NCBI RefSeq assembly: GCF_000372725.1
Contig: NW_005201298.1
Coordinates: 125,393 to 189,392, forward strand
Length of the DNA stretch: 64,000 bases
Direction: 5' to 3'
DNA from: Emiliania huxleyi CCMP1516
Lineage: Eukaryota
Shown: positions 5,395 through 63,500 of the stretch, one piece after another
How the letters are laid out: every line of letters begins with the position of its first letter
How positions within the stretch are numbered: the stretch's first letter is position 1
Notes under the pieces: model-generated
What the model saw: the letters and a program-made list of their open reading frames with translations, nothing else
What the model was told of the DNA's origin: nothing
Databases searched by the model: none
Program-made: the position numbers and the translations under genes

Positions 5395-5467
5395 GTTGGT
5401 TGTCGTCGCACGCTCTCGATATCTGGCTAAGACGAGACACAGCATCAGAGGCGACCCAAGCGACACA

Positions 5468-15409: not shown

Positions 15410-16386
15410 NNNNNNNNNNNNNNNNNNNNNNNNNNNNNNNNNNNNNNNNNNNNNNNNNNNNNNNNNNNNNNNNNNNNNNNNNNNNNNNNNNNNNNNNNNN
15501 NNNNNNNNNNNNNNNNNNNNNNNNNNNNNNNNNNNNNNNNNNNNNNNNNNNNNNNNNNNNNNNNNNNNNNNNNNNNNNNNNNNNNNNNNNNNNNNNNNNN
15601 NNNNNNNNNNNNNNNNNNNNNNNNNNNNNNNNNNNNNNNNNNNNNNNNNNNNNNNNNNNNNNNNNNNNNNNNNNNNNNNNNNNNNNNNNNNNNNNNNNNN
15701 NNNNNNNNNNNNNNNNNNNNNNNNNNNNNNNNNNNNNNNNNNNNNNNNNNNNNNNNNNNNNNNNNNNNNNNNNNNNNNNNNNNNNNNNNNNNNNNNNNNN
15801 NNNNNNNNNNNNNNNNNNNNNNNNNNNNNNNNNNNNNNNNNNNNNNNNNNNNNNNNNNNNNNNNNNNNNNNNNNNNNNNNNNNNNNNNNNNNNNNNNNNN
15901 NNNNNNNNNNNNNNNNNNNNNNNNNNNNNNNNNNNNNNNNNNNNNNNNNNNNNNNNNNNNNNNNNNNNNNNNNNNNNNNNNNNNNNNNNNNNNNNNNNNN
16001 NNNNNNNNNNNNNNNNNNNNNNNNNNNNNNNNNNNNNNNNNNNNNNNNNNNNNNNNNNNNNNNNNNNNNNNNNNNNNNNNNNNNNNNNNNNNNNNNNNNN
16101 NNNNNNNNNNNNNNNNNNNNNNNNNNNNNNNNNNNNNNNNNNNNNNNNNNNNNNNNNNNNNNNNNNNNNNNNNNNNNNNNNNNNNNGATGTATGATGTAT
16201 GTAGAAAGATGAACAACAGTCGAGAAGCGTGTGGAATGACGCCGTGAACGGCGGCTCGCAGAGGGGCATCCACGACCACAGATTCAGCCGAGGTTGCCAC
16301 CCGCCGGTATCGGTTCGCTCCACTTTCGCTTCTCGCGCCTGCCACGCACCGCGCCGACACGGGGAACCAAGCGTGACCAAACGCAG

Positions 16387-18610: not shown

Positions 18611-21479
18611 GTGGGGCGTCGACCTCGGGAGCGAGGTGTATGTGCGCTACGTGCGGCTGCAGAACGCAAACGACTGCTGCGCGGAGCGGCTGACGGACGT
18701 CGACATCTATCTCGGCTCGACGGCGGAGACGTACACGGGCAACGCGCTGGTGAAGTCGGACGTGAGCGTGTCGTCGAACGTGATGTTGGAGGTGGAGATC
18801 AACGCGCTGGGGCGCTACATCTACCTCAACCGGCCGTCTGCGGCGGGGCTGACGGTGTGCAAATTCTACGTCTTCACTTCGCCCGCGCCGCCGTCGCCAC
18901 CATCACCGCCGCCGCCGTCCGAGCCGCCCTCCCCTCCGCCCCCCTACGCCTCGCCGTCGCCGCCGCCGCCGTCTGTGTCGCCCTCGCCGCCGCCCCCGTC
19001 CGTGCCGCCGTCACCTCCGCCGCCCTCCGCCTCGCCCTCGCCGCCGCCTCCCTCCGCCTTGCCGTCGCCTCCGCCACCGTCCGTGCCGCCCTCGCCGCCG
19101 CCGCCCTCAGCGTCGCCCTCGCCGCCACCGCCGTCAGCCTTGCCGTCGCCGCCGCCGCCCTCCGCCTCGCCGTCGCCGCCGCCGCCCTCCGCCTCGCCCT
19201 CGCCGCCGCCGCCGTCGGCCTCGCCCTTTCCGCCGCCGCCGTCGGCCTCGCCCTCGCCTCCGCCCCCCTCCGCCTCGCCGTCGCCGCCGCCCCCGTCCGT
19301 GCCGCCGTCACCACCGCCACCGTCGGCGTCGCCCTCTCCGCCGCCGCCGTCCGTGTCGCCCTCGCCGCCGCCGTCCGCCCCGCCCTCCCCTCCGCAACCG
19401 TCCGCCTCGCCGTCGCCGCCGCCGCCGTCCGTGACGCCGTCGCCGCCGCCGCCCTCCGCCTCGCCCTGGCCGCCGCCGCCGTCGGCCTCGCCCTCGCCGC
19501 CGCCGCCGTCCACCTCGCCCTCGCCGCCGCCACCGTACGTGCCGCCCTCGCCGCCGCCGCCTTCCGACTCGCCATCGCCTCCGCCCCCCTCCGCATCGCC
19601 GTCGCCGCCGCCGCCGTCCGTGCCGCCGTCACCACCGCCACCGTCGGCCTCGCCCTCGCCTCCGCCGTCCGTGCCGCCGTCGACGCCGCCGCCGTCGGCC
19701 TCGCCCTCACCGCCGCCGCCGTCCGTGCCGGCCTTCCCTCCGCCCCCCTCCGCCTCGCCGTCGCCGCCGCCGCCGTCCGTGCCGCCCTCGCCGCCGCCTC
19801 CCTCCGCCTCGCCGTCGCCGCCGCCACCGTCCGTGCCGCCCTTCCCTCCGCCGCCTTCCGCCTCGCCCTCGCCTCCGCCGCCCTCCACCTCGCCCTCGCC
19901 GCCGCCCCCGTCCGTGCCGCCGTCACCACCGCCACCGTCGGCCTCGCCCTCTCCGCCGCCGCCGTCCGTGTTTCCCTCGCCGCCGCCGCCCTCCGCCTCG
20001 CCGTCGCCGCCGCCGCCCTCCGCCTCGCCGTCGCCGCCGCCGCCGTCGGCCTCGCCCTCGCGTCCGCCGCCCTCCACCTCGCCCTCGCCGCCGCCCCCGT
20101 CCGTGCCGCCGTCACCACCGCCACCGTCAGCCTCGCCCTCTCCGCCGCCGCCGTCCGTGTCGCCCTCGCCGCCGCCACCGTCCGTGCCGCCGTCACCACC
20201 GCCACCGTCGGCCTCGCCCTCTCCGCCGCCGCCGTCCGTGTCGCCCTCGCCGCCGCCACCGTCCGTGCCGCCCTCCCCTCCGCCCCCCTCCGCCTCGCCG
20301 TCGCCGCCGCCGCCGTCTGTGTCGCCGTCGCCGCCGCCCCCGTCCGTGCCGCCGTCACCTCCGCCGCCCTCCGCCTCGCCCTCGCCGCCGCCTCCCTCCG
20401 CCTTGCCGTCGCCTCCGCCACCGTCTGTGCCGCCCTCGCCGCCGCCGCGCTCAGCGTCGCCCTCGCCGCCACCGCCGTCAACCTCGCCGTCGCCGCCGCC
20501 GCCCTCCGCCTCGCCGTCGCCGCCGCCGCCCTCCGCCTCGCCCTCGCCGCCGCCGCCGTCGGCCTCGCCCTCCCCACCGCCGCCGTCGGCCTCGCCCTCG
20601 CCTCCGCCCCCCTCCGCCTCGCCGTCGCCGCCGCCACCGTCCGTGCCGCCCTCGCCGCCGCCGCCTTCCGACTCGCCGTCGCCTCCGCCCCCCTCCGCCT
20701 CGCCGTCGCCGCCGCCCCCGTCCGTGCCGCCGTCACCACCGCCGCCGTCGGTCTCGCCGTCGCCGCCGCCGCCGTCCGCCTCGCCCTCGCCGCCGCCGTC
20801 CGTGCCGCCGTCACCACCGCCACCGTCGGCCTCGCCCTCGCCAACGCCGTCGCCAATTCGACCAGGAGAGGTCGTGGTTTTCGCTTCCTCCTTCTCCCTC
20901 GAGATCGTCTCGGCCCGACGGCAGCGCGCTCTAGCCGCCATGGACTTGGTTGCCATTGAGGCCGCTTTGATCGATTCCTTCGCCACTTGCGACCCCCCTG
21001 TGATTGTCTCCGCCGAACAGATGACCCTCGAGGATCTCGGCGACGACAAGGTGCAGGCCACCATCGTGCAGGCCGAGGGTGGGCCGGCCGCGGAGGACAT
21101 CACGGCTGCCGCGGAGCAGCTAGCCTTCCTCACACGCATGGCCGAGCAGCTGGGGGTGGCTAAAGTCGGCTTCGACGCGCCGCCCGTAACGGTCACGGTG
21201 GTCGTTGCGCCGCCGCCACCCTCCGCCTCGCCCTCGCCGCCGCCGCCCTCCGCCTCGCCGCTGCCGCCGCCTGCCTCCGCGCCGTCGCCGCCGCCGCCGT
21301 CCTTCACGCCCCTCATCGACGTCGATCCAGGACGGTCTGATGAACTCACCAGCGAAAACGCTGGTGACGATGGCCCAGTGCTCGAGCTGTGGGCGGTGGC
21401 TCTTATCGCTGTGGGAGCGGCCGCTGCAGTGCTGTGCTTGGGGGGCTGTTGCATTTGGCGGAGACGGAGGGGCGCTTGA
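18611..21479 (+). CDS. C-terminal part of a cell-surface protein: F-type lectin/F5-8C-like domain, Ser-Pro stalk, TM helix
   Basis: WGVDLG...VRLQNANDCCAERL...GRYIYL...LTVCKFYVF, then ~650 aa of SPPPP repeats, then LWAVALIAVGAAAAVLCLGGCCIW and RRRRGA-stop. Confidence 0.85.
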
Positions 21480-24770: not shown

Positions 24771-26984
24771 TCACATCACCAAATGCTGCTGGATGATTGC
24801 CGCCTTGAGCAGCCGCTGCACCCCGAGCACCGCGCGCGAGGCCAGCGCCAGGGGCGGCTGCTCGCCCCCCTCCGCGCCGCCGCCCGAGCTCGCCTTGAGC
24901 TCCTCCGCCAGCAAGCCCGCGCTGCGCCGCAGCGCGAGCAGATCGTCCATCGAGCAGCGCAGCGCCGGCCCGTCGCCGTGTAGCCACGCGTAGTGCGCCG
25001 CGTCCGCGCCGAGTGCGTGCCTCGCCACCAGCGCGCTCACCGACGCGTCGACGTGCGCGACAAACTCGTTCGGCGGCGGGCCGCCCTCCCCGCCCGGCCG
25101 CCCGTCCGCCTCTGCCAGCGAGCACGCGAGCCGTAGCTTCCTGGCCGCCTCGCCGGCCAGCACCTAGTCAGCCGCACGGGCGAGCTCCTAGACACTTCCT
25201 ATTCCTAGACACTTCCTAGACACTTCCTAGACACTTCCTAGAGGGTGCAGGGAGGGTGCAGGGAAGGTGCAGGGAGGGTGCAGGGAGGGTGTGTAGGAAG
25301 GATGTGTAGGAAGGGTGCGCAAGAGGGGTCTCTAGGTGTCACGCACCGGCCCGCTCGGCGCCGCCCGGCCGCGAGGGAGGGAGGCGGGGGCCGGGCGCCC
25401 CGCGTCGGCAGCCGCGTCGGCGGCCTCGCCGAGCGCGCCGCGCGCCCTTGCCAGGAGGCGCTCGAACAGCGACTCGGCTGGCGCCTAATGAACGAACGAA
25501 TTAACTATTAATTAACTACGACTGAGTAATTAGCTCGAGCAGCGACTCGGCTGGCGCCGCGCCGTCGCTGCCCGCTCGGCCGCCGGCAGCGGGTGCCCAC
25601 TTTCCGAGCGCGGGTTGCCGATGCGAGCAAGCAGCGCCTTTTGGGGGAAGTGGAGGAGAAGGGGGGGAGGGGGGGGGGGNNNNNNNNNNNNNNNNNNNNN
25701 NNNNNNNNNNNNNNNNNNNNNNNNNNNNNNNNNNNNNNNNNNNNNNNNNNNNNNNNNNNNNNNNNNNNNNNNNNNNNNNCAGTCGGCAAACCGTCGCGGA
25801 AGTGCCCGCCTCTCCCGCCGCCGACATCTTACCCGCTGCGAGAGCGGCGGCGGCGGCGGCGGGTGCCGCGTTGATTGCCTCGCCATACAGCACGCTCATC
25901 TGCTGCGTGGCGAGCACCTAGCCGAGCCGAGCCGAGATGTCTCCGAGAGATGTCTCCTAGATGTGGGGAGATGTGGGGAGATGTGGGGAGATGTGGGGAG
26001 ATGTCTCCGAGAGATGTCTCCGAGAGATGTCTAGGAAGTGTCTAGGAAGTGTCTAGGAAGTGTCTAGGAAGTGTCTAGGAAGTGTCTCCGAGAGAAGTCT
26101 CCGAGAGATGTCTCCGAGAGATGTCTAGGAAGTGTCTAGGAAGTGTCTAGGAAGTGTCTAGGAAGTGTCTAGGAAGTGTCTCCGAGAGATGTCTCCGAGA
26201 GATGTCTCCGAGAGATGTCTCCGAGGCTCATCCGAGATCGGCACGCTCAGCAGCTGCGTAGTGAGAGGGGTGAGAGGCCCCCAGACACTCAGTCGTGGCG
26301 CTGCTCTCGGCGAATCCCGGCGAATCCCGGCGAACCCCGGCGAATCCCGGCGAACCCCGGCGAACCCCGGCGAGCCTCGCGCGAATCTCGCGCGAATCTC
26401 GGCGGGCTCCATCTCGGCGGGCTCCATCTCGGCGGGCTCCATCTCGCCTCGCGCACGAAGCGGCGCTGCGAGGCGGGCCATGCCGCCGCGAGCAAGTCGA
26501 CCTAAACACGTCCTGGACACGTCCTAGACACTTCCCAGAGGCCATGCCGCCGCGAGCAAGTCGACCTAAACACGTCCTGGACACGTCCTAGACACTTCCC
26601 AGAGGCCATGCCGCCACGAGCAAGTCGACCTAAACACGTCCTAGACACGTCCTAGACACTTCCCAGAGGCCATGCCGCCGCGAGCAAATCGACCGTGTCC
26701 GCGTCGAGCGAGGGAGGCGGCGGCTCGTCCGAGGAGGACCCAGGCGGCGGAGGCGGCGGAGGCGGCGGAGGCGGCGGAGGCGGCGGAGGCGGCGGAGGCG
26801 GCGGCGGCGGAGGAGGAGGAGGTGGAGGTGGTGGTGGAGGCGGTGGTGGCGGAGGGGGAGGCTCCGCCGAAGCCTCGACCGGTGTGACCACCCCGCCGCC
26901 CTGCCTCTCGCCTTGCTGCCTCTCGCCTTGCTGCCTCTCGCCCACCTCGGCCCCTCCCCCCCCTCCGCCGCTGCCTCCCCCCTC

Positions 26985-27015
<31 letters not shown>

Positions 27016-28440
27016 CTGCCGCCGCGCCCTTCGCGCCGCCGCCGCGAGACGGACGGCAGTCCGGTGGCTGGAGACGTGACAACCGTGCGGCGGTCGGACA
27101 CGGCTTGGCGGGCGGCGACCGCGGCGGCGGGGGGAGCCGCGGCGGCGTCAGCGGCGGCGTCAGCGGCGGCGGCGGCGGCGGCGGCAGCGGCGCCGCCCCT
27201 CTCCGGTGTTGCCGGGCCGAATTGCGGCTCTGGCGGCGCGGCGTCGTCGGAAGCGGTGCGGCGCGTTGCGGCGGGTCGCGGGGGCGTGTCCCACTCCCCC
27301 GCCGCCACGCTCTCTCCCATCCTCCGCACCGCAACCTCCCTCGCCCTCGCCAGGACGGGCTCGCATAGTGGAGAGACCGCCTGATGGGGGAGGGTCGGAG
27401 GAGGTGGCTAGGAGGTGGCTAGGAGGTGTCTAGGAGGTGTCTAGGAGGTGTCTAGGAGGTGTCTAGGAGGTGGCTAGGAGGTGTCTAGGAAGTGTCTAGG
27501 AGGTGTCTAGGAGGTGTCTAGGAGGTGTCTAGGAGGTGTCTAGGAGGTGTCTAGGAGGTGTCTAGGAGGTGTCTAGGAAGTGTCTAGGAGGTGTCTAGGA
27601 GGTGTCTAGGAGGTGTCTAGGAGGTGGAGATCTGGGGAGATCTGGGGAGATATGGGGAGATGTGGGGAGATATGCCCGCCTGCCGAAAAGCAGCTCGCGC
27701 CGCGGCCCCGACGGCCTCCCACAGCGGCCGGCTGCGCGCCTGCTCGGGGAGAGTTCCGGGAAGGTTCCGAGAAGGGGCGGGGAGGGTTCCGAGAAGGGGG
27801 GCTGCGTGCCTCCGCCGCGTCTCGAGATGTGGGGAGATGTGGGGAGATGTGGGGAGATATGGGGCTGCGTGCCTCCGCCGCGTCTCGAGATGTGGGGAGA
27901 TGTGGGGAGATGTGGGGAGATGTGGGGAGATATGGGGCTGCGTGCCTCCGCCGCGTCTCGAGATGTGGGGAGATGTGGGGAGATGTGGGGAGATATGGGG
28001 CTGCGTGCCTCCGCGGCATCTCGAGATATGGGGAGATGTGGGGAGATATGGGGAGATATGGGGCTGCGTGCCTCCGCGGCATCTCGAGATATGGGGAGAT
28101 GTGGGGAGATATGGGGAGATATGGGGCTGCGTCCCTCCGCCGCGTCTCGAGATGTGGGGAGATGTGGGGAGATGTGGGGAGATATGGGGCTGCGTGCGGT
28201 CCGCCGCGTCTCGAGATGTGGGGAGATNNNNNNNNNNNNNNNNNNNNNNNNNNNNNNNNNNNNNNNNNNNNNNNNNNNNNNNNNNNNNNNNNNNNNNNNN
28301 NNNNNNNNNNNNNNNNNNNNNNNNNNNGGAGATGTGGGGCTGCGTGCCTCCGCGGCATCTCGAGCGTCGACCACCTCCAGAGGCTCTTCCTCGCCGCAAC
28401 CGTCGGCGGCGAGGCGCAGGCCTACCGTGCTGCACGAGGT
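24771..28440 (-). CDS. Multi-exon 3' coding region, probably the C-terminus of the DENN gene
   Basis: Exons bounded by AG acceptors and GC/GT donors (e.g. 24771-25163 ending in stop, 25780-25917, poly-Pro exon ~26694-27380). Linkage across gaps is inferred. Confidence 0.55.
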
Positions 28441-28599
28441 ATGACTTCAACGCGTCGTTGATTCCGGTGAACACGCCAGCATCGGGGCGGGAGGACGGTG
28501 TGTTGCGCAGAGCATGCGTGGCACCGCGTGAGTACGAGGGGCTACCAGGGAGATACGAGGACAGCGGAAGACCGCCGAGTGTACAGTCGACTGCGGCGG

Positions 28600-30152
28600 A
28601 GTGCGTGTCCTCTCGAGCGCTGGCTGGGAGACAGGACAGCGTCTTCCCGCTTCTAGCGTTGCCGGGCCTCCGAAGGCCGCTCCGCCGAGGATGGGCGAGA
28701 GGCTGGCGGGCGCGGGCGGCGCGTTGGCGGACGCCTCGCCGAGAGCCCAGACTAGCTGGCGGCGCGAGCGGGAGGGCAGCGGGAGGACGGGCGGGTCGGG
28801 CGGGAAGAAGACGCGCTCACCGCCCGCCGCCTCGCCGCCGACCGCCGCCACCACGAGGTCCCGGTGCTCCTCGCTCATCCGCGCGGCGTCCGCCTTCCAC
28901 GAGAAGATGGCCCGCTGCGCCCCGATGTCTCCCCCCACATCTCCCCCACATCTCCCGCGCCTTCCACGAGAAGATGGCCCGCTGCGCCCCGATGTCTCCT
29001 CCCCCATCTGCCCAAGATCTGCCGAGCATTCCTCGAGAACATGGCCCGAGGCGCCGCTAGGCTCGCACGTCCCTCGCACGGAGGTCGCGCCGCTCGAGGC
29101 GATCTTCGCCAACCTCTTCAAGACGGAAGCTCATCATATTTCTGTTTTCACGCGCGTACTGTCTCTTTTCAGGCGACCCTCGCCGACCGCTTCAAAACAG
29201 AGGAACACGTCTTTTTATACGCGCGTACCTGTCTCTTTCCAGGCGATCCTCGCCGACCTCTTCTCCCTCGCCACGGCCTCTCTCGTCCCGGGCGGGCGGC
29301 TGGTCTTCCTGCTGCCGTGCACCCTCCCCCTCGCCGAGTCGCTTGCCCTCCTCCCGCCTCACCCGACGCTCGAGGTGCCTCCGCGGGGACGAGGAGGCCG
29401 CCGAGGCAGGCAGAGGCCACACGCCNNNNNNNNNNNNNNNNNNNNNNNNNNNNNNNNNNNNNNNNNNNNNNNNNNNNNNNNNNNNNNNNNNNNNNNNNNN
29501 NNNNNNNNNNNNNNNNNNNNNNNNNGCGAGGCAGTGCAGCAGCCCCTCCGCCGCGGACGTCAGGCCGAGGGGCGAGCGCGCCACGAGGACGACCGACCGC
29601 TCCTGCGGGGGAAACGTCCGAGAAAGGTCCCGAGAAAAGGTCGAGAGAGGAGGGCGCCGAGCTGCAGCCGAGGTCAGAGCGCAGCGAACTACTCCGCGGT
29701 GGCTCCTGCAGCGCCGCCTCGCACAGCAGCACGCTCAGCTCGGCGCCGCACAGCGCGAGCATCGCCGCGGCGCTCCAGTCGCCCCACCCTTCCATGCCCA
29801 CCACGCCGCCCGCCACCCGCGCGCCGCCGCCGCCGCCGCCGCCGCCGCCGGAAGCGAGCGTGCCGCTGGCTGCGCTCGGCTGCGGCCAGAGCGAGGCGGC
29901 CGGGGCGGCGCTCTCCTCGAGCAGCGAGAGCACGTCGAGCTGGCGGGCGGCACAGCGCGCCTACAAGGGCGGGGCGAGGCGCGTGCTATCAACGGCTAAC
30001 GCAAGACAACGCGCAACGGCCCGGGGTAGGGCGCCTCCAGCCACCGGTGGAGCGAGACGGCAGGAGCGCAGCCGACGCCGCCGTCGCTTCTCTGCCGACG
30101 GAGCGTGCGGCGCACGCGCGTCTCCGCAGACACGATGGCGCTCGCTGAGACA

Positions 30153-30198
<46 letters not shown>

Positions 30199-30808
30199 TG
30201 TCACCACCGCCATCGTTGCTGCCGCCGCCGGTGGCATCGCCACGTCCGTCCGGGAAGACGCGCGTGACGTGCTGCTGCCTGCGCGCCCGCCGCCTCTCCC
30301 TCCAGTCGTCGGGGCGAGGCGGCCGCTCGCCTTCGCCTCCCGCCCGGCCGATGCCGGTGGCGGCGGCGAGGCGTCCGCCTCCACCCTCGCGCAGACTCGG
30401 GTGTGAGCGCTGCCGCTGTGGGAGAGGGAGCGAGGCGCGCGCCGCGGCGTCGGAGCGGTAGAGCTTGGAGAGCGCGCGCAGGCACCGCTGCGCGTCGAGG
30501 ATGCACGGCGCGGTGGAGAGCAGCGCGAGGCTCTGCGGGCCTTCGCCCGACGGCGGCCCGTTTCCGGCCGGAGGGGTGACCACCGAGAGGAAGAGGCGCG
30601 TGCCGCTGGCGGAGAGCACGTTGCAGGTGAAGCTTCCAAGAGCGCCGCCCGCGCTCTCGTCGGCGGTGCAGAAGGCGGTCACCTTGGGCGGGAGCGGGAG
30701 GGCGCCGGGAGCATCCTCGGGAGGGAAGCGGTACAGCACGACGCGCCGGCCGCCCGACGTGCCGCACACGAAGAGGACCCGCTGGCTGGCTGGCCGCGTT
30801 TCGAGCAT
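28600..30808 (-). CDS. DENN-domain protein (Rab GEF-like), 5' exons
   Basis: uDENN-like VLYRFPPEDAPGALPLPPKVTAFC...SLALLSTAP, and core DENN-like LLCEAALQ/ERSVVLVARSPLGLTSAAEGLLHCL. Interrupted by a gap and an inverted TRM11 fragment. Confidence 0.75.
29060..29425 (+). other. Inverted near-identical copy of the TRM11 3' region (33909-34280)
   Basis: Exon and intron sequence match the reverse complement of 33909-34280 with few differences. Confidence 0.85.
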
Positions 30809-30915
30809 GAATCAAACGCGTTTGGGGTGGCTGTTACCAAAATGATACGACGAAAGGCGCTTTTTCAGTGTACGTACTTTTAGCTTACTCAGTGTACGTA
30901 CGTACTTATAGCTTA

Positions 30916-31360
30916 CTGGGAGAAAAGAGAGAGGGGGTTGTGTTCTCTAGGCCCCTAAGGGCCCTACGCGCGGCGTGAGAGCTCGGAAGCGAGCTTTGCA
31001 CGGCGATCGAGGATGGCACGGTTCACCCCCTTCACCGAAGCGATGGAGATGCGTTCCGCGTGGTGTGACACAAATGAGAGGCGGGAGTGGGGAGGGTACG
31101 CGGTGCGGTCAACGCCCGAGCGTTGAGCCTTGCGCGCAAGGCGGTTGATCTTTGCAACTGCTGGCGGCGAGAAGCCGCCGCCGAATGTCTCGTGGAGAAG
31201 CAGGTTGAACTTGTTGCGTTTGGTGAAGATCCCATCATGGTAGTGGCCACGCTGTGACTTGACGTAGCCTTGGCCGGTGGTGTGGTCGAACGCCCGTTGA
31301 CCACGGAACCCGCGTTGCTTGCAGCCCATGTTTGCAAGGCGGGCGCGCTCTTCGGTGCCG
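30916..31360 (-). mobile_element. 5'-truncated non-LTR retrotransposon end (restriction-like endonuclease C-terminus)
   Basis: ...LLLHETFGGGFSPPAVAKINRLAR...SFVSHHAERISIASVKG-stop resembles the ETFGG...RIS C-terminus of CRE-like elements. Confidence 0.65.
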
Positions 31361-32056
31361 TACTGTGCCCAAGTGTGCCGCGGGGGGGAGACCGTCACTC
31401 TCGGACGCTACGCCACGGCAGAGGAGGCGGCGCGAATCTATGCGAGCACGCCAGAGGGCAAAGCTGAGCTGGCGGCCAGGTCAGCACCGCAGGCCAGCAA
31501 CACACCACGCAAGCGGCCTTCCGGCGCATCGAACTGGCAAAAGCGGCAGAAAGCCACCGGCGCCAACCCCTCCACCTCCTCCGCCGCCTCCTCCGCCGCC
31601 TCGGCCGAGTTCGAGGTGGACCGCATCCTGTCCGAGCGGCGCCGGCCGAGCGGCGGCGTCGAGTACCTCGTCGCATGGACGGCTGCGCGCTTCGCGCCCT
31701 CCTGGGAGCCCGCGCCCAACTTGGTGGACGAGGACGGCGCGGTGTGCTCGGCGCTGCTGGCGTGGCGTGCGTCGCGCGCCGCGCCGCAGCAAGGCGGCCC
31801 GGCGACCGAGCCTCTTCCGTCCCTCGGCATGCCGGCGGGAGAGCCCCTCCCGCCCCTCGGCATGCCGGCGGTGCTGCAGGCTCTCGAGGGCGTCGGGCTG
31901 GGCCGGTACGCGGCGGCGTTCGAAGAGCAGGGCTATGACGACCTGCGCTACTTGCGGACGATGGACGCGGCGGAGCGCGCGACGGTGGCGGAGAGCGTGG
32001 GAATGAAGCAAGGGCACGCCGGCAAGTTTGTGAAGTTCGCGCTTGAGCCGGCGTAG
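31358..32056 (+). CDS. AP2-like + chromodomain + SAM protein, 5' end missing
   Basis: PYCAQVCRGGETVTLGRYATAEEAA (AP2-like); FEVDRILSERR..GGVEYLVAW...SWEPAPNL (chromo); LEGVGLGRYAAAFEEQGYDDL...VGMKQGH (SAM). Confidence 0.8.
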   Translation, partial: PYCAQVCRGGETVTLGRYATAEEAARIYASTPEGKAELAARSAPQASNTPRKRPSGASNWQKRQKATGANPSTSSAASSAASAEFEVDRILSERRRPSGGVEYLVAWTAARFAPSWEPAPNLVDEDGAVCSALLAWRASRAAPQQGGPATEPLPSLGMPAGEPLPPLGMPAVLQALEGVGLGRYAAAFEEQGYDDLRYLRTMDAAERATVAESVGMKQGHAGKFVKFALEPA

Positions 32057-33564
32057 GCCGTCGTACTCGGGCGCCAGTCGAGAGCGGGCCGCGTGCACAC
32101 TCAAGGTTACTTGTGGGTTTCATTTTCTCTATGACACGCTGCCTGTTTTGAACTGTCAACAAGAGCAGCAAGAGCGGCCGCACATTGCTCGGTACCCCCC
32201 CTGCACATCTAAAGCCATCTCTGCTGCTAGGGGGGGGGGAGGGGGGTCTGACCCCCCCAGCAGCAGAGCGCTGCTGCTGGGGGGGGGGGGGGGGGTCCTG
32301 ACCCCCCCAACAGGAAAACCCTGCTGCTGGGGGGGGGGGGGGGCCCCACCCAAGGGTGGGGAATAAGGCTAAAGGGGCCCCCTACACTTAACCCCCGCAG
32401 GGAGGGAGGGCTCAAATTAACCCCCCCACGGAGCCCGGGTCAAAATTAAAACCTGGAAAGCCGGGGGCCCTGAACTTTAACCACACCAGGCCCACTCCCG
32501 GGAAAAACCCGGGATACCCGCAAAAATCCCGGGTAGGGGTACACCCACACCAACCCCGGGTGTGGAACCCCCATAAAGGGGAAGGGGGGGAACCCCGGGT
32601 ATTTTATAGTCCCGTCGGGTTTGGCCCCCTTGATTTAAGGGGTCAGGTTGTCCCGCCCCAATCTTGGGTAGTAGGGGCTAGAGGGTCGCTCTACACTTAG
32701 CCTCTGCAGCGAGCGAGCGCTCAACTTAGCCCCCGCACGGAGCCGGGCTCAGACTTAGACGCTGGAAGGCCGGGGGCCATGAACTTAGACGACACGAGGC
32801 CAACTCCGGGTAAAACCCGGGTATACCTGCAAAAGTCCAGGTTAGGGCTACACGCACACGAGCCGCGGTCGTGTAGCCGTCATAGCGGCGAGGCGTGGGA
32901 CCGTCTGTGGCGAAGTGGGTCGCGTCCCTCGATTTCCGTCAACTCACCCTCCACACCCTCTACCCGGAAATGTTTGACGACTCGAACCCGTGAAGCTTCC
33001 CCGTGCGCGGGTTACCCCGCACACGGGTCAGCCTGCCAGCCACGTATCCACGCAAGCGTGGTCCGCGTGCATGGCATACAGGCGTTCGCCAGACAGCGCA
33101 GAGGCTAGGCGACCGGGGAAGGACTAGCTCAAGGGGAACAACACAGCGTCACCAGCCGTTGGCGCGCAGATCGAGTCTGCGGCCCCCGGTTGGGGCGAGT
33201 GCGCGACGCGGACGAACCGCTCAATGTGGCCGGCAGCTCTTTCTGCCGGCGGGGTTGGTTGGGGAGGACCGGCACGGGGAAGGCCGACCTCCCAGGAGGG
33301 GTCGCCCCCTGGAGGGGCCCCGAAGTAAAACTCTTTTAAAGTTTTTAGAGTGCGGTGTGTGTGTAAAACCGTATATATGAATAAATAAATAAAAACGGAC
33401 ACCTCTCTACTGTGAGATGGGTAAAAAGGAACAGGCCCCCGCCCTTGCGATCTTTGTGCAGGGTTCTTTGTCGTATATATGCATGTGCATGCATTTCGAT
33501 AAAAAAAATGGACCCAACGCCCCGACTCGTGGTGACGAACCGGCGTGCATTCGCCACGCACGCG

Positions 33565-36500
33565 CTATCCGCCGTTCTGTGCGCATGCCTCAGGCGCCGG
33601 CGGCCCGTTGCGCGAATAGCCCGCCCGTCGGCGCGCAACCTTCTCCTGCAGCTCTGGGTGGAGGACGGGCGCAACGGGCCTGTCCGCCGCTGCGCCGCCG
33701 CCGCCGCATCTCCGCTCAAAAATAGTGCGGCGCAAGTCCGGCACCGCCGCTTCCTCGCCGGCGGGAGAGGGTTCGGCGCCGTTCGTCGTCGCCTCGGCCG
33801 AGCCGTCGGCCGACCGGATCATGGTGACGCACCAGCGCGACCAGCGCGCCGCCATGCGCTGCTCGCACGCGCCGACCACCTAAGGCACCGGCACGGGCGG
33901 CTGGGAAGGGCGTGTGGCCTCTGCCTGCCTCGGCGGCCTCCTCGTCCCCGCGGAGGCACCTCGAGCGTCGGGTGAGGCGGGAGGAGGGCAAGGGACTCGG
34001 CGAGGGGGAGGGTGCACGGCAGCAGGAAGACCAGCCGCCCGCCCGGGACGAGAGAGGCCGTGGCGAGGGAGAAGAGGTCGGCGAGGGTCGCCTGAAAGAG
34101 ACAGGTACGCGCGTATAAAAAGACGTGTTCCTCTGTTTTGAAGCGGTCGGCGAGGGTCGCCTGAAAAGAGACAGTACGCGCGTGAAAACAGAAATATGAT
34201 GGGCTTCCGTCTTGAAGAGGTTGGCGAAGATCGCCTCGAGCGGCGCGGCCGCCGTGCGGGGGACGTGCGAGGCGAGCTGCGCCTGTGGACGTGTCCCGGA
34301 CGTGTCGTGGACGTGTCGTGGACGTGTCGTGGACATGCCTCGAGGGACGTGCGAGGCGAGCTGCGCCTCCTCGAGAGTTCGCTGTCTAGGAAGTGTCTAG
34401 GAAGTGTCTAGGAAGTGTCTAGGAGGTGTCTAGGAGGTGTCTAGGAGGTGTCTAGGAAGTGTCGCCTCCTCGAGGGTTCGCTCGGAGAGCGGAGCGTCGT
34501 CGAGCGTCGCCGATCGCTCGCGGATGCCGTAGGGCGGGTCGGTGATGATGGCGTCAAGGAAGGGACGCGGCCGCCTGCGGACGTGTCCCGGACACGTCAG
34601 CGACGTGCCATGGACTGTCATGGACGTGTCAAAGAGGGGACGCGACCGCCCTCCGCACCCGACGGGCGGCGTCTAGGAGGTGTCTAGGAAGTGTCTAGGA
34701 GGCGTCTAGGAGGTGTCTAGGAGGTGTCTAGGAGGTGTCTGGGAGGTGTCTAGGAGGTGTCTTGGAGGTGTCTAGGAGGTGTCTAGGAGGTGTCTAGGAG
34801 GTGTCTAGGAAGTGTCTAGGAGGTGTCTAGGAGGTGTCTAGGAAGTGCACCCGACGGGCGGCGCGCGGGACGTGCGCAGCGGGCAGCCGGCGCGCCCCGA
34901 GTCGGCATGGACGAGACCGAGAAGGGGGGGCAGCCCGTACTGCTCGAAGGTGAGGCCGATCGACTGCCTCTTCGGCTGAGTCGCCTTGGAAGGGCCAGAT
35001 CGGGACCGCACCGCGCCGCGAAGCACCGGGGCGTACAGGTCGGAGCCGAGCACGCGTGCGCCAAAGGCGGCGGCGCCGACGAGGCAACTCGCGGTGCCTA
35101 CGGACATGTCCCGGACGTGTCATGGACGGGTCATGGACATGTCAGCAGCAGCGAGTAGTCCATCAGCCTACGGACATGTACATGTCCCGGACGTGTCATG
35201 GACGGGTCATGGACATGTCAGCAGCAGCGAGTAGTCCATCAGCCTACGGACATGTCCCGGACGTGTCATGGATGTGTCATGGACGTGTCAAAGGTCGAGG
35301 CGGCTCGCGGCTCCGCAGAACGGGTCGAAGACGAGCTGCGAGGGCCCGCACCTCGCCAGGTTGGCCATCACGAGCGAGAGCTCCTAATTAATGAGTTAAT
35401 TCGCTGGTTGATTCGGTCATTAAATCCAGGTTGGCCATCACGAGCGAGAGCTCCTAATTAATGAGTTAATTCGCTGGTGAATTCGTTCATTAAATCCAGG
35501 TTGGCCATCACGAGCGAGAGCTCCTAATTAATGAGTTAATTCGCTGGTTGATTCGGTCATTAAATCCAGGTTGGCCATCACGAGCGAGAGCTCCTAATTA
35601 ATGAGTTAATTCGCTGGTTAATTCGTTCATTAAATCCAGGTTGGCCATCACGAGCGAGAGCTCCTAATTAATGAGTTAATTCGCTGGTTGATTCGGTCAT
35701 GAAATCCAGGTTGGCCATCACGAGCGAGAGCTCCTAATTAATGAGTTAATTCGCTGGTTAATTCGGTCATTAAATCCAGGTTGGCCATCACGAGCGAGAG
35801 CTCCTAATTAATGAGTTAATTCGCTGGTTGATTCGGTCATTAAATCCAGGTTGGCCATCACGAGCGAGAGCTCCTAATTAATGAGTTAATTCGCTGGTTG
35901 ATTCGGTCATTAAATCCAGGTTGGCCATCACGAGCGAGAGCTCCTAATTAATGAGTTAATTCGCTGGTTGATTCGGTCATTAAATCCAGGTTGGCCATCA
36001 CGAGCGAGAGCTCCTAATTAATGAGTTAATTCGCTCGTCAATTCGTTCATTAAATCCAGGTTGGCCATCACGAGCGAGAGCTCCTAATTAATGAGTTAAT
36101 TCGCTGGTTGATTCGTTCATTAAATCCAGGTTGGCCATCACGAGCGAGAGCTCCTAATTAATGAGTTAATTCGCTGGTTGATTCGTTCATTAAATCCAGG
36201 TTGGCCATCACGAGCGAGAGCTCCTAATTAATGAGTTAATTCGCTGGTTAATTCGTTCATTAAATCCAGGTTGGCCATCACGAGCGAGAGCTCCTAATTA
36301 ATGAGTTAATTCGCTCGTCAATTCGTTCATTAAATCCAGGTTGGCCATCACGAGCGAGAGCTCCTAATTAATGAGTTAATTAGCTGGTTGATTCGTTCAT
36401 TAAATCCAGGTTGGCCATCACGAGCGAGAGCTCCTAATTAATGAGTTAATTCGCTGGTTAATTCGGTCATTAAATCCAGGTTGGCCATCACGAGCGAGAG

Positions 36501-36765
36501 CTCCGCGTCGAGGGAGGTGGTGCCAATGTAGTTCCGCCGCTTGAGGTCGAGTCGACCGACCAGCTCCCGCTGCCCAACGCCAACCTTTGGGGGGGGAGGA
36601 CGGGGGGGCGGGGGGCTTGGCATCGGCTCGTCGGCTGCCGCGGCTCACACCCGTCCGGAGCCAGCCCCATCTTCCCAAGTGTGGCTGCCAAGGTAGCAGT
36701 GCGGGGCGTGCGCAAGCCTCGAGCCCAAAGTAGAAGCGGAAGGCAGCCGCGGCGGGCCCGCCGCC

Positions 36766-36796
<31 letters not shown>

Positions 36797-37482
36797 CCAC
36801 CACCACCACCGCCGCCGCCGCCGTCACCGCCGCCCTCACCGCCGCCCTCACCGCCGCGGTCACCGCCGCGGCCACCGCCGCCGCCGCCCGCGCCCGCCGC
36901 CGCGTCGCCGGCAGTCCCACCAGCAGCAGGACCGACAAAGTCCACGAGCAGGACGAGCGTGTAGTCGGGCGACTTGAGCCGCACTTTGCCGCGAGGAGAG
37001 AGCAGCTTGGCGAGGCGCGTGATCAGCTCGAGGCGGTCCGGCTCGCTCGCGCTCCCGCCGTACCCGTCCACCACCACCTTGAAGCTCGACCCCTCGCGCA
37101 GGTACGGCGCGTACACCTCGGCCGGGCACGCGCGGAGCCGCCCCTCCAGCTCGGCAATCGAGGCGCCGCTCGCCCACACCTCGACGAAGCGCTTGACGAG
37201 CACCGCGCGCGCCGCGACTCGCGCTAGGCCGGCGGAGCCGCTGGAGCAGCTCACGGGGAGGTAGACGCCGCCCGCGCCGGCAGAGAGCTCGTCGATGTCG
37301 GCGTCGGTCGCAGAGACGTCAACGCCAACCGCCTCGGCCGCCGCGAGCAGCTCTGGCACGCGAAAGTCGAGCCACTCGTGCACAAAGTGGCAGAGGTGGC
37401 TGACGCTGGATGCCACGGTCGTAGCCACGGTCGTTGCCGACGTGGGCGGCTCCAAGGCCCGAGTGTCTATAGACGGCAGCAT
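33565..37482 (-). CDS. TRM11: tRNA m2G10 methyltransferase Trm11 (multi-exon)
   Basis: DFRVPEL, THUMP-like middle region, LKRRNYIGTTSLDAELSLVMANLA, VFDPFCGTASCL, DAIITDPPYGIRE, LVPGGRLVF; stop at 33565. Confidence 0.92.
35356..36503. repeat. 70-bp tandem array: 17 copies of a 28-nt TRM11 exon segment and 16 AT-rich 42-nt fillers
   Basis: CCAGGTTGGCCATCACGAGCGAGAGCTC starts at 35356 and recurs every 70 bp up to 36476. Confidence 0.97.
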
Positions 37483-49689: not shown

Positions 49690-52600
49690 CAATCTCTGTC
49701 CAACATCTCGCCCGAGATCGCCCGAGATCGCCGAGATCGCGATCTCGCCCAGATGATGGAGAGTAGGCGGCGGCGGCGCTGCCATCGCGCCCCACGCCTC
49801 GCCAAAGCCTCGACGGCGTGATGATCGACATCAGCTCACGCAGACCACATCGAGTCCATGTCCGACATCTCGCTCCAGATCGCCCGAGATCGCCGAGATC
49901 GCGATCTCGTCTCGAGATGAAGGATGATTAGGCGGCGGCGGCGCTGCCATCGCGCCCCGCGCCTCGCCAAAGCCTCGACGGCGTGATGATCGACATCAGC
50001 TCACGCAGACCACGTCGAGTCCATGTCCGACATCTCGCTCGAGCTCGCCCGAGCTCGCCCGAGATCGCGATCTCGTCACCAGATGAAGGATGATTAGGCG
50101 GCGGCGGCGCTGCCAGCGCGCCCCACGCCTCGCCAAAACCTCGACGGCGTGATGATCGACATCAGCTCACGCAGACCACGTCGAGTCCATGTCCGACATC
50201 TCGCTCGAGCTCGCCCGAGCTCGCCCGAGATCGCGATCTCGTCACGAGATGAAGGAGAGTAGGCGGCGGCGGCGCTGCCAGCGCGCCCCACGCCTCGCCA
50301 AAGCCTCGACGGCGTGATGATCGACATCAGCTCACGCAGACCACGTCGAGTCCATGTCCAACCTCTCGCTCAAGATCACCCGAGATCACCGAGCTCGCGA
50401 TCTCGTCACCAGATGAAGGAGAGTAGGCGGCGGCGGCGCTGCCAGCGCGCCCCGCGCCTCGCCAAAGTCTCGACGGCGTGATGATCGACATCAGCTCACG
50501 CAGACCACGTCGAGTCCATGTCCGACATCTCGCTCGAGCTCGCCCGAGCTCGCCCGAGATCGCGATCTCGTCACGAGATGAAGGAGAGTAGGCGGCGGCG
50601 GCGCTTCCAGCGCGCCCCACGCCTCGCCAAAGCCTCGACGGCGTGATGATCGACATCAGCTCACGCAGACCACGTCGAGTCCATGTCCGACATCTCGCTC
50701 GAGCTCGCCCGAGCTCGCCCGAGATCGCGATCTCGTCACGAGATGAAGGAGAGTAGGCGGCGGCGGCGCTGCCAGCGCGCCCCACGCCTCGCCAAAGCCT
50801 CGACGGCGTGATGATCGACATCAGCTCACGCAGACCACGTCGAGTCCATGTCCAACATCTCGCTCGAGATCACCCGAGATCACCGAGATCGCGATCTCGT
50901 CACGAGATGAAGGAGAGTAGGCGGCGGCGGCGCTGCCATCGCGCCCCACGCCTCGCCAAAGCCTCGACGGCGTGATGATCGACATCAGCTCACGCAGACC
51001 ACGTCGAGCCCATGTCCGACATCTCGCTCGAGATCACCCGAGATCACCGAGCTCGCGATCTCGTCACGAGATGAAGGAGAGTAGGCGGCGGCGGCGCTGC
51101 CAGCGCGCCCCGCGCCTCGCCAAAGCATCAACGGCGTGATGATCGACATCAGCTCACGCAGACCACGTCGAGCCCATGTCCGACATCTCGCTCGAGATCG
51201 CCCGAGATCGCCGAGATCGCGATCTCGTCTCGAGATGAAGGAGAGTAGGCGGCGGCGGCGCTGCCATCGCGCCCCGCGCCTCGCCAAAGTCTCGACGGCG
51301 TGATGATCGACATCAGCTCACGCAGACCACGTCGAGTCCATGTCCAACCTCTCGCTCGAGATCACCCGAGATCACCGAGCTCGCGATCTCGTCACGAGAT
51401 GAAGGAGAGTAGGCGGCGGCGGCGCTGCCAGCGCGCCCCGCGCCTCGCCAAAGCATCAACGGCGTGATGATCGACATCAGCTCACGCAGACCACGTCGAG
51501 TCCATGTCCGACATCTCGCTCGAGATCACCCGAGATCACAGAGCTCGCAATCTGGTCACGAGTTGAAGGAGAGCAGGCGGCGGCGGCGCTGCCATCGCGC
51601 CCCGCGCCTCGCCAAAGCCTCGACGGCGTGATGATCGACATCAGCTCACGCAGACCACGTCGAGTCCATGTCCGACATCTCGCTCGAGCTCGCCCGAGCT
51701 CGCCCGAGATCGCGATCTCGTCACCAGATGAAGGAGAGTAGGCGGCGGCGGCGCTGCCAGCGCGCCCCGCGCCTCGCCAAAGTCTCGACGGCGTGATGAT
51801 CGACATCAGCTCACGCAGACCACGTCGAGTCCATGTCCGACATCTCGCTCGAGCTCGCCCGAGCTCGCCCGAGATCGCGATCTCGTCACGAGATGAAGGA
51901 GAGTAGGCGGCGGCGGCGCTTCCAGCGCGCCCCACGCCTCGCCAAAGCCTCGACGGCGTGATGATCGACATCAGCTCACGCAGACCACGTCGAGTCCATG
52001 TCCGACATCTCGCTCGAGCTCGCCCGAGCTCGCCCGAGATCGCGATCTCGTCACGAGATGAAGGAGAGTAGGCGGCGGCGGCGCTGCCAGCGCGCCCCGC
52101 GCCTCGCCAAAGTCTCGACGGCGTGATGATCGACATCAGCTCACGCAGACCACGTCGAGCCCATGTCCGACATCTCGCTCGAGATCACCCGAGATCACCG
52201 AGCTCGCGATCTCGTCACGAGATGAAGGAGAGTAGGCGGCGGCGGCGCTGCCATCGCGCCCCGCGCCTCGCCAAAGTCTCCACGGCGTGATGATCGACAT
52301 CAGCTCACGCAGACCACGTCGAGTTCATGTCCAACCTCTCGCTCGAGATCACCCGAGATCACCGAGCTCGCGATCTCGTCTCGAGATGAAGGATGATTAG
52401 GCGGCGGCGGCGCTGCCATCGCGCCCCACGCCTCGCCAAAACCTCGACGGCGTGATGATCGACATCAGCTCACGCAGACCACGTCGAGTCCATGTCCAAC
52501 CTCTCGCTCGAGATCACCCGAGATCACCGAGCTCGCGATCTCGTCACGAGATGAAGGAGAGTAGGCGGCGGCGGCGCTGCCAGCGCGCCCCGCGCCTCGC

Positions 52601-60501: not shown

Positions 60502-63500
60502 ATGATGCACATACTCGCCACCGCGCTCTCTGGCACCACTCGGCCCTCGAACCGGGTCGGTGGCTCGCCGCTCATCCCCCTCTCAGACCCGCGCAACGCT
60601 CAACGAGCCGGCCCGGAGCAGATCCACCTCACCGGCGCGAGCGTCGACAGCATCCACGTGACTTGGTCCGACAACGACACCTCCACCGCTCCGTCCGTGG
60701 TCGAGGTTCGAGCGGTCTCTGATGCCGCTTCGTGGACGGCGGTGCCGGGTCCGAGTGGGTCCGTGTACTCGGCATTGCAGGCAGCGGACGCTTGCCCCGG
60801 AGGCTACACCGACCCGTCCTGCATCTACACGTCGAGCGTGCTGCACTCGGTCCAGCTCACGCAGCTCGAGCCAGCGACCGAGTACGAGTACCGCGTCCGC
60901 AGCGCAGCAGGAAAGGTCCAGGAGAGGTCCTCGCGGTCGCTCCGCTTCACCACGCCGCCGGCTCGCTGGCTGTCTTGCGGCAGTGTGTGGTGCCGTGAGG
61001 GGCGCCGCCCCCAAAACTACGACCGTCATAACGTAGGCCGCGGGCTCGCCCGCCGTCCGGTTTGGCGTTGTCGCCGACCTGGGGCAGACAACCAACTCGA
61101 GCGCGACGGTGGCCGGGCTGCAGCAGGTGGCGGAGATATGGGGAGATATGGGGAGATATGGGGGCCGGGCTGCAGCAGGTGGCGGGGAACCAGGGGCGGC
61201 GTGAACCTCCCGCCGCGCAGTCGCGTGAGCCGAGCCCGTTTCGCAGGCGGCTGAGGACGGCTCGATCGACGCCATCCTACTGGGCGGAGACCTCTCGTAC
61301 GCTGACGGCGAGATGATCGACATCAGCTCACGCAGACCACGTCGAGTCCATGTCCGACATCTCGCTCGAGATCGCCCGAGATCACCGAGCTCGCGATCTC
61401 GTCACGAGATGAAGGAGAGTAGGCGGCGGCGGCGCTGCCAGCGCGCCCCACGCCTCGCCAAAGTCTCGACGGCGTGATGATCGACATCAGCTCACGCAGA
61501 CCACGTCGAGTCCATGTCCGACATCTCGCTCGAGCTCGCCCGAGCTCGCCCGAGCTCGCGATCTCGTCACGAGATGAAGGAGAGTAGGCGGCGGCGGCGC
61601 TGCCAGCGCGCCCCACGCCTCGCCAAAGTCTCGACGGCGTGATGATCGACATCAGCTCACGCAGACCACGTCGAGTCCCATGTCCGACATCTCGCTCGAG
61701 CTCGCCCGAGCTCGCCCGAGATCGCGATCTCGTCACGAGATGAAGGAGAGTAGGCGGCGGCGGCGCTGCCAGCGCGCCCCGCGCCTCGCCAAAGTCTCGA
61801 CGGCGTGATGATCGACATCTGCTCACGCTTACCACGTCGAGCCCATGTCCCGACATCTCGCTCGAGATCACCCGAGATTACCGAGTTCGCGACTCGTCAC
61901 GATATGAAGGATAGTAGGCGGCGGTGGCGCTTGCAGCTGCGCCCGCGTCTTCGCCCAAATTCTCNNNNNNNNNNNNNNNNNNNNNNNNNNNNNNNNNNNN
62001 NNNNNNNNNNNNNNNNNNNNNNNNNNNNNNNNNNNNNNNNNNNNNNNNNNNNNNNNNNNNNNNNCGGAGGGAACCACGAGGCGAGAGCTACTCCAACCCC
62101 AACCCGGACCCTGACCCTTACCCTGACCCGTACCCTTACCCTTGCCCCAACCCTGACCCTGACCCTGACCCTGACCCCAACCCGAACCCTGACCCTCACC
62201 CTAGGTCAGCAGCGGGGGCGAGAACTGGCTGGCGTACTCGCGGCGGTACCCAAACGGCCACGCCGCCGCGCGGACCGACTCCTTTCACAGTGAATCATTC
62301 ATCGCGAAGCAGTTATTGGTAGGCCACGCCGCAGCGCAGTCCGACTCCTTCCTCTGGTACTCGCTCGAGGTATATCTCCCCACTCCCCCATATCTCCCCC
62401 ACATCTCCGCCTTCCCGGCAGAGGTGGGTCCACCCTCCCCTACCCCAACGGTACCCGAACCCACCCTCCCCTACCCCACGGTACCCGAACCCACCCAGCC
62501 TTCCCGGGCGAGGTGGAGTGCTCACCTCCCTGCACCGACCCTTGCACTTTGAGTGTGCCGTGCCGGCTCCAGCCCGTGTGGGGATGCGAGGGCTGCCTGG
62601 CCCTTGCCCCACCAGGAAAGTGACCCTTCCTTCCTTCTCTCGAGGCGGGGCCGGCGCATGTGATGATGCTCTGCTCGTACGCCGCGAGCGGCCCAGGCTC
62701 GCCGCAGCATGAGTGACTGACAGGTCCATGACATGTCCTGGACATGTCCGGGACATGTCGTGCAGGCTCGCCGCAGCATGAGTGGCTCACACGCGACCTC
62801 GCTTCGGTCGACCGCCGCCGCACGCCCTGGCTGATCGCAGTGCTGCACACGCCGTGGCGCGCCTCTCATGATATCTCCCCATAGTATCTCCCAATACCTC
62901 CCCGTATCTCCCCATAGTATCTCCCAATACCTCCCCATATCTCCCCATATCTCCCCACATCTCCCCATATCTCCCCATATCTCCCCGTACCTCCCCGTAT
63001 CTCCCCATATCTCCCCATATCTCCCCGCGTCTCATGCCGTGGCACGCCTCCAACCGCCACGAGGAGCGGATAGATAGGTAGGAAGGCGAAACACAGTCCG
63101 ACCAACGACAGGGACACTGGCGCGGTATGGGCGGACGCACGACGGGCGGTGACGGTCACACAGGAGCGACGAGGAGCGGGGAGATATGGGGAGATATGGG
63201 GAGATATGGGGAGCTGCGCTCCTCGCGTGGTGAGAGCGACTCGGTGATGCCCCTTTGAGGTACACCTCCAACCGCCACCACCCGATGAGCGAGGGCGCGA
63301 GGATGCGAGAGGACCTCGAGCCCCTCCTCCTCGCCGCGGGAACAGACCTCGTCCTCAACGGCCGCGCGCACCCTCGACGAGCACGCCGGGCCCAGAACGA
63401 AGAAGCACGCGCGCAGATCGACTTCTTTTATTAGGCCGTGTGCGCCTCTACGAGCGGGCCCAGAAAAAGAGACATCACGCGACACTGTACTTCTTTCTTA

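Follow-up and report, generated by a model that had tools for sequence, protein, structure and literature searches.

Introns bearing long copies of neighboring exon sequence in the TRM11 gene of Emiliania huxleyi

The source of new intron sequence is a long-standing open question, raised in concrete form by the TRM11 gene (tRNA m2G10 methyltransferase) of Emiliania huxleyi CCMP1516, whose introns repeat parts of the exons beside them. The gene lies on the minus strand at 33565..37482 of a 64,000-nt stretch of contig NW_005201298.1 (positions 125,393 to 189,392; hereafter the window), and is modelled here with 8 exons and 7 introns, encoding about 588 aa. A first-pass annotation of the window, made from the letters alone, had described introns in which a copy of flanking exon is followed by filler ending in AG. 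This architecture is real, and all three examples quoted for it are present on the minus strand: five of the seven introns hold a 13–28 nt copy of the start of the following exon. We consider it probable, if well short of certain, that these introns arose by staggered-break repair, with 13–30 nt of target duplicated and other repeat arrays serving as templates for the filler.

Introns 2, 3 and 6 begin with the copy, which provides their GA or GC donor; introns 4 and 5 hold it internally, and introns 1 and 7 lack it. Intron 2 (35384..36503; 1120 nt, predicted GA-AG) consists of 16 70-mer units, in each of which the first 28 nt of exon 3 (35356..35383, the template) are repeated exactly and followed by a 42-nt AT-rich filler ending in AG; by sequence reading GA is the only G-starting donor here that pairs with an AG. 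Intron 3 (35098..35313; 216 nt, predicted GA-AG) begins with a 15/20 copy of the exon 4 start (35313-35294), followed by filler of what we call the B family. These two cleanest donor-supplying cases were absent from the first-pass examples. Intron 6 (34092..34234; 143 nt, GC-AG) was among them, correctly given as two units (74 and 69 nt), each with a copy of the exon 7 start (18/21 and 20/21) and a filler ending in AG. The introns lacking an exon copy are intron 1 (36585..36717; 133 nt, GC-AG, placed by open frame and homology) and intron 7 (33880..33959; 80 nt, GT-AG).

Introns 4 and 5 have an added layer: their internal copies sit behind an 11-mer array, itself flanked by a duplicate that spans the donor. 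In intron 4 (34575..34850; 276 nt, GT-AG) the array (34846-34671) lies between identical 16-nt copies (34862-34847 and 34670-34655), and a 12/13 copy of the exon 5 start (34637..34649) follows, 9 nt behind an older GT donor, leading into B filler that ends in AG. Intron 5 (34283..34465; 183 nt, GC-AG) consists of an array of the A family (34462-34384), a joined copy of the exon 5 end and exon 6 start (34383-34344), and B filler ending in AG. The second first-pass example is this internal copy; the third had been taken for the start of an intron, which RNA contradicts, the copy lying 201 nt inside intron 4. The accompanying claim that the duplicate supplies the donor therefore holds for introns 2, 3 and 6 and fails for these two examples, both of them in introns extended by later insertion beside the donor. 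Between the older intron 4 donor and the exon copy are 9 in-frame bases (34658-34650), possibly left by a shift of the donor in which a variable loop lost three codons. The claim that such introns leave the protein unchanged may fail at this point.

RNA contigs from four runs of three studies (two runs recorded as RNA, two guessed to be) were aligned to window positions 28300-35420. One transcript, found in 4/4 runs, skips introns 4, 5, 6 and 7 exactly at the lengths given above; the joints of introns 6 and 7 were aligned via a second partial gene copy (29049..29426, plus strand). For introns 2 and 3 joints are seen at the protein level, in the transcript-derived P0019 and for intron 3 also in P0005 and P0017, and both require a GA donor. 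The 3′ end of intron 3 is present in other samples as well (P0022, P0026 and P0058). Among the matches listed none is an RNA joint for intron 3, and introns 1 and 2 are outside the aligned region or at its margin; the start of an RNA contig at 35098 in 4/4 runs would suit a split between spliced and retained forms at the acceptor of intron 3, which is only a hint. In a neighboring gene the RNA joint 29705-29603 is compatible with GA-AG only. Exact removal at G[TCA]...AG is thus documented by RNA for introns 4–7 and two introns of that gene, and by protein joints for introns 2 and 3. The donors of 24 window introns are 15 GC, 6 GT and 3 GA; among curated E. huxleyi junctions GC accounts for 56–65% and GA for about 4%, with one GA donor confirmed by Sanger sequencing (PMC4028052).

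The seven-intron model stays open over 588 aa and contains the TRM11 motifs, and its exon 1 is 100% identical over 153 residues to E. huxleyi EMIHUDRAFT_451662. P0019, which carries the joints of introns 2–7, matches PF01170. The public TRM11 model starts 3 codons upstream of ours; its protein (P0003, 333 aa) has exon 1 spliced to exon 7 and omits the methyltransferase core, so that annotation too is affected, the whole catalytic region being skipped. A GGC-rich tract in exon 1 (36758-36910) encodes a long glycine run, at which the transcript-derived P0004 and P0015 are chimeric. The second partial copy comprises exons 6–7, intron 6 and the start of intron 7, with N gaps on both sides; it is 97% identical to the main gene over 377 nt, is the better match to RNA where exon 7 begins, and is probably the other allele, misplaced in the assembly. 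At that exon start (34091-34083, minus strand) the window encodes Thr, and the transcript-derived proteins, a close environmental contig (L013) and the second copy encode Ile; the window letters equal those of the adjacent intronic copy, as if the exon had been converted by it or reads had been mis-stacked.

The exon copies exceed chance. We scored 24 introns of three window genes (6 RNA-supported, 2 protein-supported and 16 predicted from open frames; four introns running into N gaps were excluded), comparing the first 18 positions of each with the following exon at a threshold of 14/18, with 552 mismatched pairs as controls. Seven match the next exon at 14–18 of 18 from their first bases, against a control mean of 5.2 and maximum of 12, an excess that 0 of 200,000 permutations reached. 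Anywhere in the intron, a copy of 14/18 or better was found in 10/24 versus 0/552 controls, and a copy of the upstream exon end in 4/24 versus 4/552; no intron of this set has a copy of its upstream exon at its end. Four of the seven that match from their first bases (X7, X10, P5 and P7) first surfaced in a scan for this very layout, which biases the 24-intron count upward; TRM11 alone gives the unbiased figure, 3/7 with a copy at the start and 5/7 with one anywhere. The acceptor is supplied by the filler in five of the seven donor-type introns, since their upstream exons lack a terminal AG.

The filler is not the anonymous low-complexity DNA of the first-pass description: it derives from a few common repeat families of 10–13 nt, in the window confined to introns. 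Four filler motifs gave 136 matches, 132 of them in the 24 introns (9.3% of the non-N DNA), four in two gap-side introns and none elsewhere. The B fillers, four from two genes, score 54–68 when aligned with one another, compared with 8–17 for unrelated pairs, and the AT-rich fillers of intron 2 and of 25557-25485 score 40 in opposite orientation. The 2013 E. huxleyi genome paper is said to have found 10–11 bp repeats enriched in introns. It had also been proposed that divergence between copies forms an age series, which is doubtful: the 16 exon copies of intron 2 are identical while its 70-mers fall into 8 variants through their fillers, so the copies have probably been homogenized. Intron 3 contains two foreign 24-nt pieces (35220..35243 and 35167-35144), each preceded by an AG and followed by B filler; LMDYSLLL is the translation in one frame, and the piece has no other occurrence in the window or in 26 loci. 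MDYSLL is a functional motif of PIP4K (PMC6379509), and judging from this match the intron likely carries the exon start of a phosphatidylinositol-phosphate kinase gene, captured from another gene's intron edge.

Searches for the filler patterns in viral contigs gave only 8 unrelated AT-rich chance matches in one search and 0 in the others, and those in prokaryote genomes gave 0; no TRM11 relative was found in viral contigs. Folding, done without a shuffle control, found no common fold among the fillers. By reading of the sequence, of five later inserts next to donors none has a terminal AG. Such an end thus appears to have been selected rather than built in, which favors DNA-level repair over copying of intron RNA ends and disfavors the 3′ end of an excised intron as a fixed insert end.

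Are the introns new? A metagenome scan found 18 TRM11 loci. Not counted as independent were L016/L017 (outside the clade), L021–L023 (distant, and unresolved between residues 91 and 137), L026 (residue 249 onward only), and L011, L018, L020 and L025, which repeat other loci. Intron 1 falls at the alignment edge, and the DNA-level comparison covers the positions of introns 2–7. Five distinct haptophyte-type orthologues (L009, L010/L011, L012, L014 and L015) read through those positions that they cover, without stops; the single frameshift, in L014 at residue 81-82, does not coincide with an intron site. In a 34-row tree (from which L011, L013, L018 and L020–L026 were left out), the uninterrupted orthologues branch separately within one 100/99 clade that also contains E. 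huxleyi and Prymnesium parvum. A more similar relative (L018–L020, 77% identical) has continuous exon across introns 5–7 and has introns elsewhere. The first-pass expectation that these positions are not shared with relatives was thus borne out, and on parsimony their gain in the E. huxleyi line would be the simplest reading. Coverage by open reading frames, as a gauge of intron poverty in the relatives, was uninformative in this GC-rich DNA. Closer to the window, the 98% identical environmental contig L013 has the 3′ part of intron 5 and introns 6 and 7 in the same layout, with one B unit fewer in intron 5.

In the 77% relative the TRM11 introns (L019 1-7700, also L018 and L020) are kilobases of repeated exon edges with splice sites, a pseudo-exon puzzle for the spliceosome. 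Events of the same kind at existing splice sites expand introns, and in L019 four exon edges have 13, 7, 3 and 5 additional copies.

Sites with and without an insert offer the most direct view of the process. Four database proteins (P0058, P0067, P0070 and P0071) contain an in-frame read-through of an 84-nt intron 4, and match the window translated without the 192 nt (34659..34850) that make up the array and one 16-nt duplicate; P0069 has the window form and stops where the window's array begins. This allele difference is read from proteins, not DNA; splicing cannot produce the insert-less form, since no AG lies at that point. Nested events, which the first-pass annotation had suspected, are thereby supported. 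In another alga, L024/L025 differs from the uninterrupted L014 by a 16-nt duplicate starting with GT around a 102-nt telomere-type insert ending in AG, with DNA identity of 95% and 92% on the two sides. This TRM11 fragment (L024 1745-2260 and 2990-3140) stands amid telomere-type repeats just downstream of a gene that by sequence reading is EF-P-like, with further duplicate-plus-telomere-filler units in its vicinity. Present activity of the process, as originally proposed, is seen only as such variation between close lineages; its staggered break is the part that we infer, along with the enzyme and the template switch.

In the proposed mechanism a staggered break, or an equivalent re-replication, would duplicate the target and put 30–200 nt between the copies. 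The insert would be copied, in either orientation, from minisatellite or telomere-type arrays in other introns, as the common families and the captured foreign exon start suggest. An exonic insertion would persist only if spliced out exactly; usually the first copy, starting G|GC, G|GA or G|GT, would become the donor and the filler's AG the acceptor. Such donor recruitment would be frequent because the donor of this alga is permissive. Further insertion beside existing splice sites leaves internal exon-edge copies, as the two intron 4 alleles show, and unequal exchange between direct repeats could expand and homogenize units (such as the 16 70-mers) or delete an intron precisely. Duplication with copied filler, as first suggested, is supported by the data. 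A wider proposal, which we hold only tentatively and rate below even chances, is that several haptophyte lineages have a self-feeding, non-transposon intron factory that repairs breaks in genes and so makes a large share of Emiliania introns from long duplications and other introns' minisatellite or telomere-type arrays, with GC and GA donors being recruited exon, exon fragments moved between genes, and introns able to expand or to be deleted precisely via the direct repeats that they contain.

Several other origins must be weighed. Retroposition, in which a non-LTR (long terminal repeat) endonuclease and a reverse transcriptase would copy repeat-bearing intron RNA (retained introns or debranched lariats) and leave 13–30 nt target-site duplications (TSDs) and 5′-truncated inserts, is unlikely, if the foremost of the alternatives. 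Lengths of 13–30 nt are within those typical of non-LTR target duplications, and an RNA source would explain both the intron-type fillers and the captured exon start. Intron retention is moreover common in E. huxleyi (89% of 535 introns; PMC4028052). But about 13 inserts, a small sample inspected by eye, show no poly(A) tail, fixed 3′ end or target motif, the five secondary inserts deny AG the role of a fixed RNA end, and the telomere-type filler of L024 fits break repair as well. Next, and also improbable, is that we see remodelling rather than birth: older introns would have gained exon copies by acceptor-crossing duplication or by repair templated on spliced mRNA, and later lost their original 5′ part. 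Remodelling certainly occurs in L019, where it includes a GT-AG core of 36 nt with a copy of an exon end on one side and of an exon start on the other, and it could account for the 9-nt piece ahead of the exon copy in intron 4 and for the joined exon-exon copies in introns 5 and P8. The orthologues that lack introns at the positions they cover speak against it, as does the comparison of L014 with L024, in which coding sequence free of interruption acquires the layout; the joined copies need no RNA if two insertions followed one another, the second of these steps being shown by the intron 4 alleles.

Far less credible is plain tandem duplication of an exon containing AG|G[TC] (the Rogers model) with filler grown later by slippage. 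Introns 6 and P7 and a mirror-type unit (28960-28894) could take both splice sites from the duplicate. Both sites from the duplicate are possible in only 2/7 donor-type introns, the filler supplying AG in the other 5/7; the filler is not exon-derived and is common to different genes, and both empty/filled pairs already carry full-length foreign filler. We give slightly less credence still to an Introner family, that is, a transposon resembling miniature inverted-repeat transposable elements (MITEs), with unusually long target duplications. It would follow the same donor-from-duplicate logic (PMC9860276), and the ends of one AT-rich filler (25485-25533) match in inverted orientation over 5 nt, the sole such case seen, this filler also having a relative in opposite orientation. 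Within the window, though, the inserts differ in length and in family, can be mosaic inside a single intron and lack fixed ends, and the duplicates are 13–30 nt rather than the 3–9 nt reported. An artefact of draft assembly is the remotest of all: the window has many N gaps, a misplaced second gene copy and an unverified copy number of 16 in intron 2, but L013 and database proteins P0058–P0072 reproduce introns 3–7 independently and RNA skips introns exactly, which refutes it for introns 4–7.

Staggered-break repair itself has points against it. Intron loss in intron-poor lineages may explain the intronless relatives, and the deep nodes of the tree are unresolved. No primary TRM11 intron was found to be missing from a close allele of the E. 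huxleyi clade; presence and absence are seen for the secondary insert in intron 4, the sole close empty site, and not for a whole TRM11 intron. L024/L025 is only a TRM11 gene fragment and may not be spliced, and the copies in L019 expand GT-AG introns whose starts show no exon copy, so that the process is seen there only as remodelling. At 14/18, 2/7 TRM11 introns and 14/24 window introns lack a copy of the next exon. RNA support for TRM11 is confined to introns 4–7, introns 1–3 having no aligned reads. Finally, the restriction of filler motifs to introns is not predicted by untargeted break repair; it speaks for breaks targeted to genes, for copying from intron to intron or for a function in splicing.

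The layout recurs in other genes of the window. On the minus strand, an intron of a uDENN-like gene (26502..26693) has three units, each a 25-nt exon copy plus reversed A/B filler ending in AG, with a GT donor, and another intron (25485..25557) has a 25-nt copy plus AT-rich filler with a GC donor; both junctions are predicted, the former from the open frame. The mirror-type unit noted above (28894..28960, minus strand), a kind of layout that the first-pass annotation did not describe, is a filler followed by a copy of the upstream exon end that supplies AG; its donor lies in an N gap, and an RNA joint skips the region. Three introns on the plus strand, with junctions predicted, are at 62257..62322 (in a purple acid phosphatase gene; a diverged 30-nt exon copy plus filler, GC donor), 62697..62765 (an exact 19-nt copy plus B filler ending in AG, GC donor) and 62857..63259 (an internal joined copy of exon end and exon start behind a 10-mer array). 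One exon of the phosphatase gene matches purple acid phosphatases; a search with another exon from the phosphatase or uDENN region gave nothing useful. Candidates from the layout scan that proved not to be introns are 525-608, an in-frame coding repeat, and arrays at 5464, 11967, 18900-21300 and 48520.

Other features of the window deserve mention. The uDENN-like gene (24780-30808, minus strand) is multi-exon with a weak uDENN match (E 0.004), and contains the second TRM11 copy inside a gap-bounded intron, most likely through a scaffolding error. A 164-bp unit is repeated about 60 times at 49697-59529 (9.8 kb) and also fills the phosphatase intron 61308-61965, 1.8 kb downstream; the unit contains a copy of that intron's donor region, and the large array may be misplaced intron sequence. 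Another phosphatase intron (62081-62204) is full of telomere-type repeats ending in AG, and more such tracts occur at 5158-5392. Near-identical segments at 13390-15410 and 16188-17400, with an N gap between, encode a sulfatase-like protein by motif reading and are probably two alleles.

The earlier break-repair proposal rested on short repeats hard to separate from background; here the long duplicates can be scored one intron at a time, filler sources are identifiable and alleles exist both with and without an insert, which opens the model to genome-wide tests using existing long-read genomes and full-length isoform sequencing (Iso-Seq). It would also offer a mechanistic reason for the GC-AG majority in E. 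huxleyi. The donors found here resemble those published for the species, with a GC majority and GA present; the sections available of that study ascribe GC donors to genome GC content and do not contain donor recruitment from duplicated exon (PMC4028052). Repeat-rich introns have been noted in E. huxleyi (bioRxiv 283549), interstitial telomeric tracts in Calcidiscus (PMC13518057), and direct repeats of 4–30 bp near splice sites broadly (PMC11782384). Literature searches by topic found no paper describing this layout in its title or the start of its abstract, and it does not appear in the portions available of bioRxiv 2024.05.26.595999, PMC2784329 and PMC10290126.

Four known systems invite comparison. 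Mammalian interstitial telomeric sequences likewise have repeat filler at break sites, sometimes with target duplication (6/130 rodent and 4/25 primate loci; PMC2246262), whereas here duplication is the rule among surviving cases and the fillers are mostly 10–13-mers rather than telomere repeats; the available text of that paper makes no mention of intron creation by such inserts. As in AGGT tandem genomic duplication (PMC3443670), a duplicated exon segment gives splice sites and the protein is unchanged; unlike it, foreign filler lies between the copies in every case and usually supplies the AG. Introners recruit donors from TSDs of 3–9 bp, for instance in Symbiodinium (PMC9860276; PMC11282704), and a Chrysochromulina family has 4-bp TSDs (PMC9860276). 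The present introns are similar in having the acceptor in the insert, the donor from the duplicate (5/7 donor-type introns) and mRNA length unchanged. The distinction that the first-pass annotation drew from short-TSD Introners is upheld: the window contains no fixed element, no extended terminal inverted repeats and no introns homologous end to end, and its duplicates are long and variable. Term searches of the main text of PMC9860276 and PMC12130899 found no mention of Emiliania or haptophytes, though their supplements may list Emiliania.

The closest parallel is with the neointrons of Daphnia pulex, which have exon direct repeats of 4–12 bp and later internal staggered inserts (PMC4202315; PMC3443670). 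Shared with these are an exon direct repeat at the intron edge above background, further inserts within young introns (“staggered then staggered”), and introns that are derived and absent in relatives, the direction being judged by parsimony. In Daphnia the source of the inserts is mostly unknown, whereas here the repeats are 13–30 nt and the inserts come from recognizable common families; further differences are the predominance of GC and GA donors and the expansion of units into arrays. The architecture, real and recurrent, works like break-repair gain with the splice-site logic of Introners, having neither the short repeats of the one nor the fixed element of the other. It is best described as the Daphnia break-repair model in a variant with long duplicates, rather than as an Introner family.

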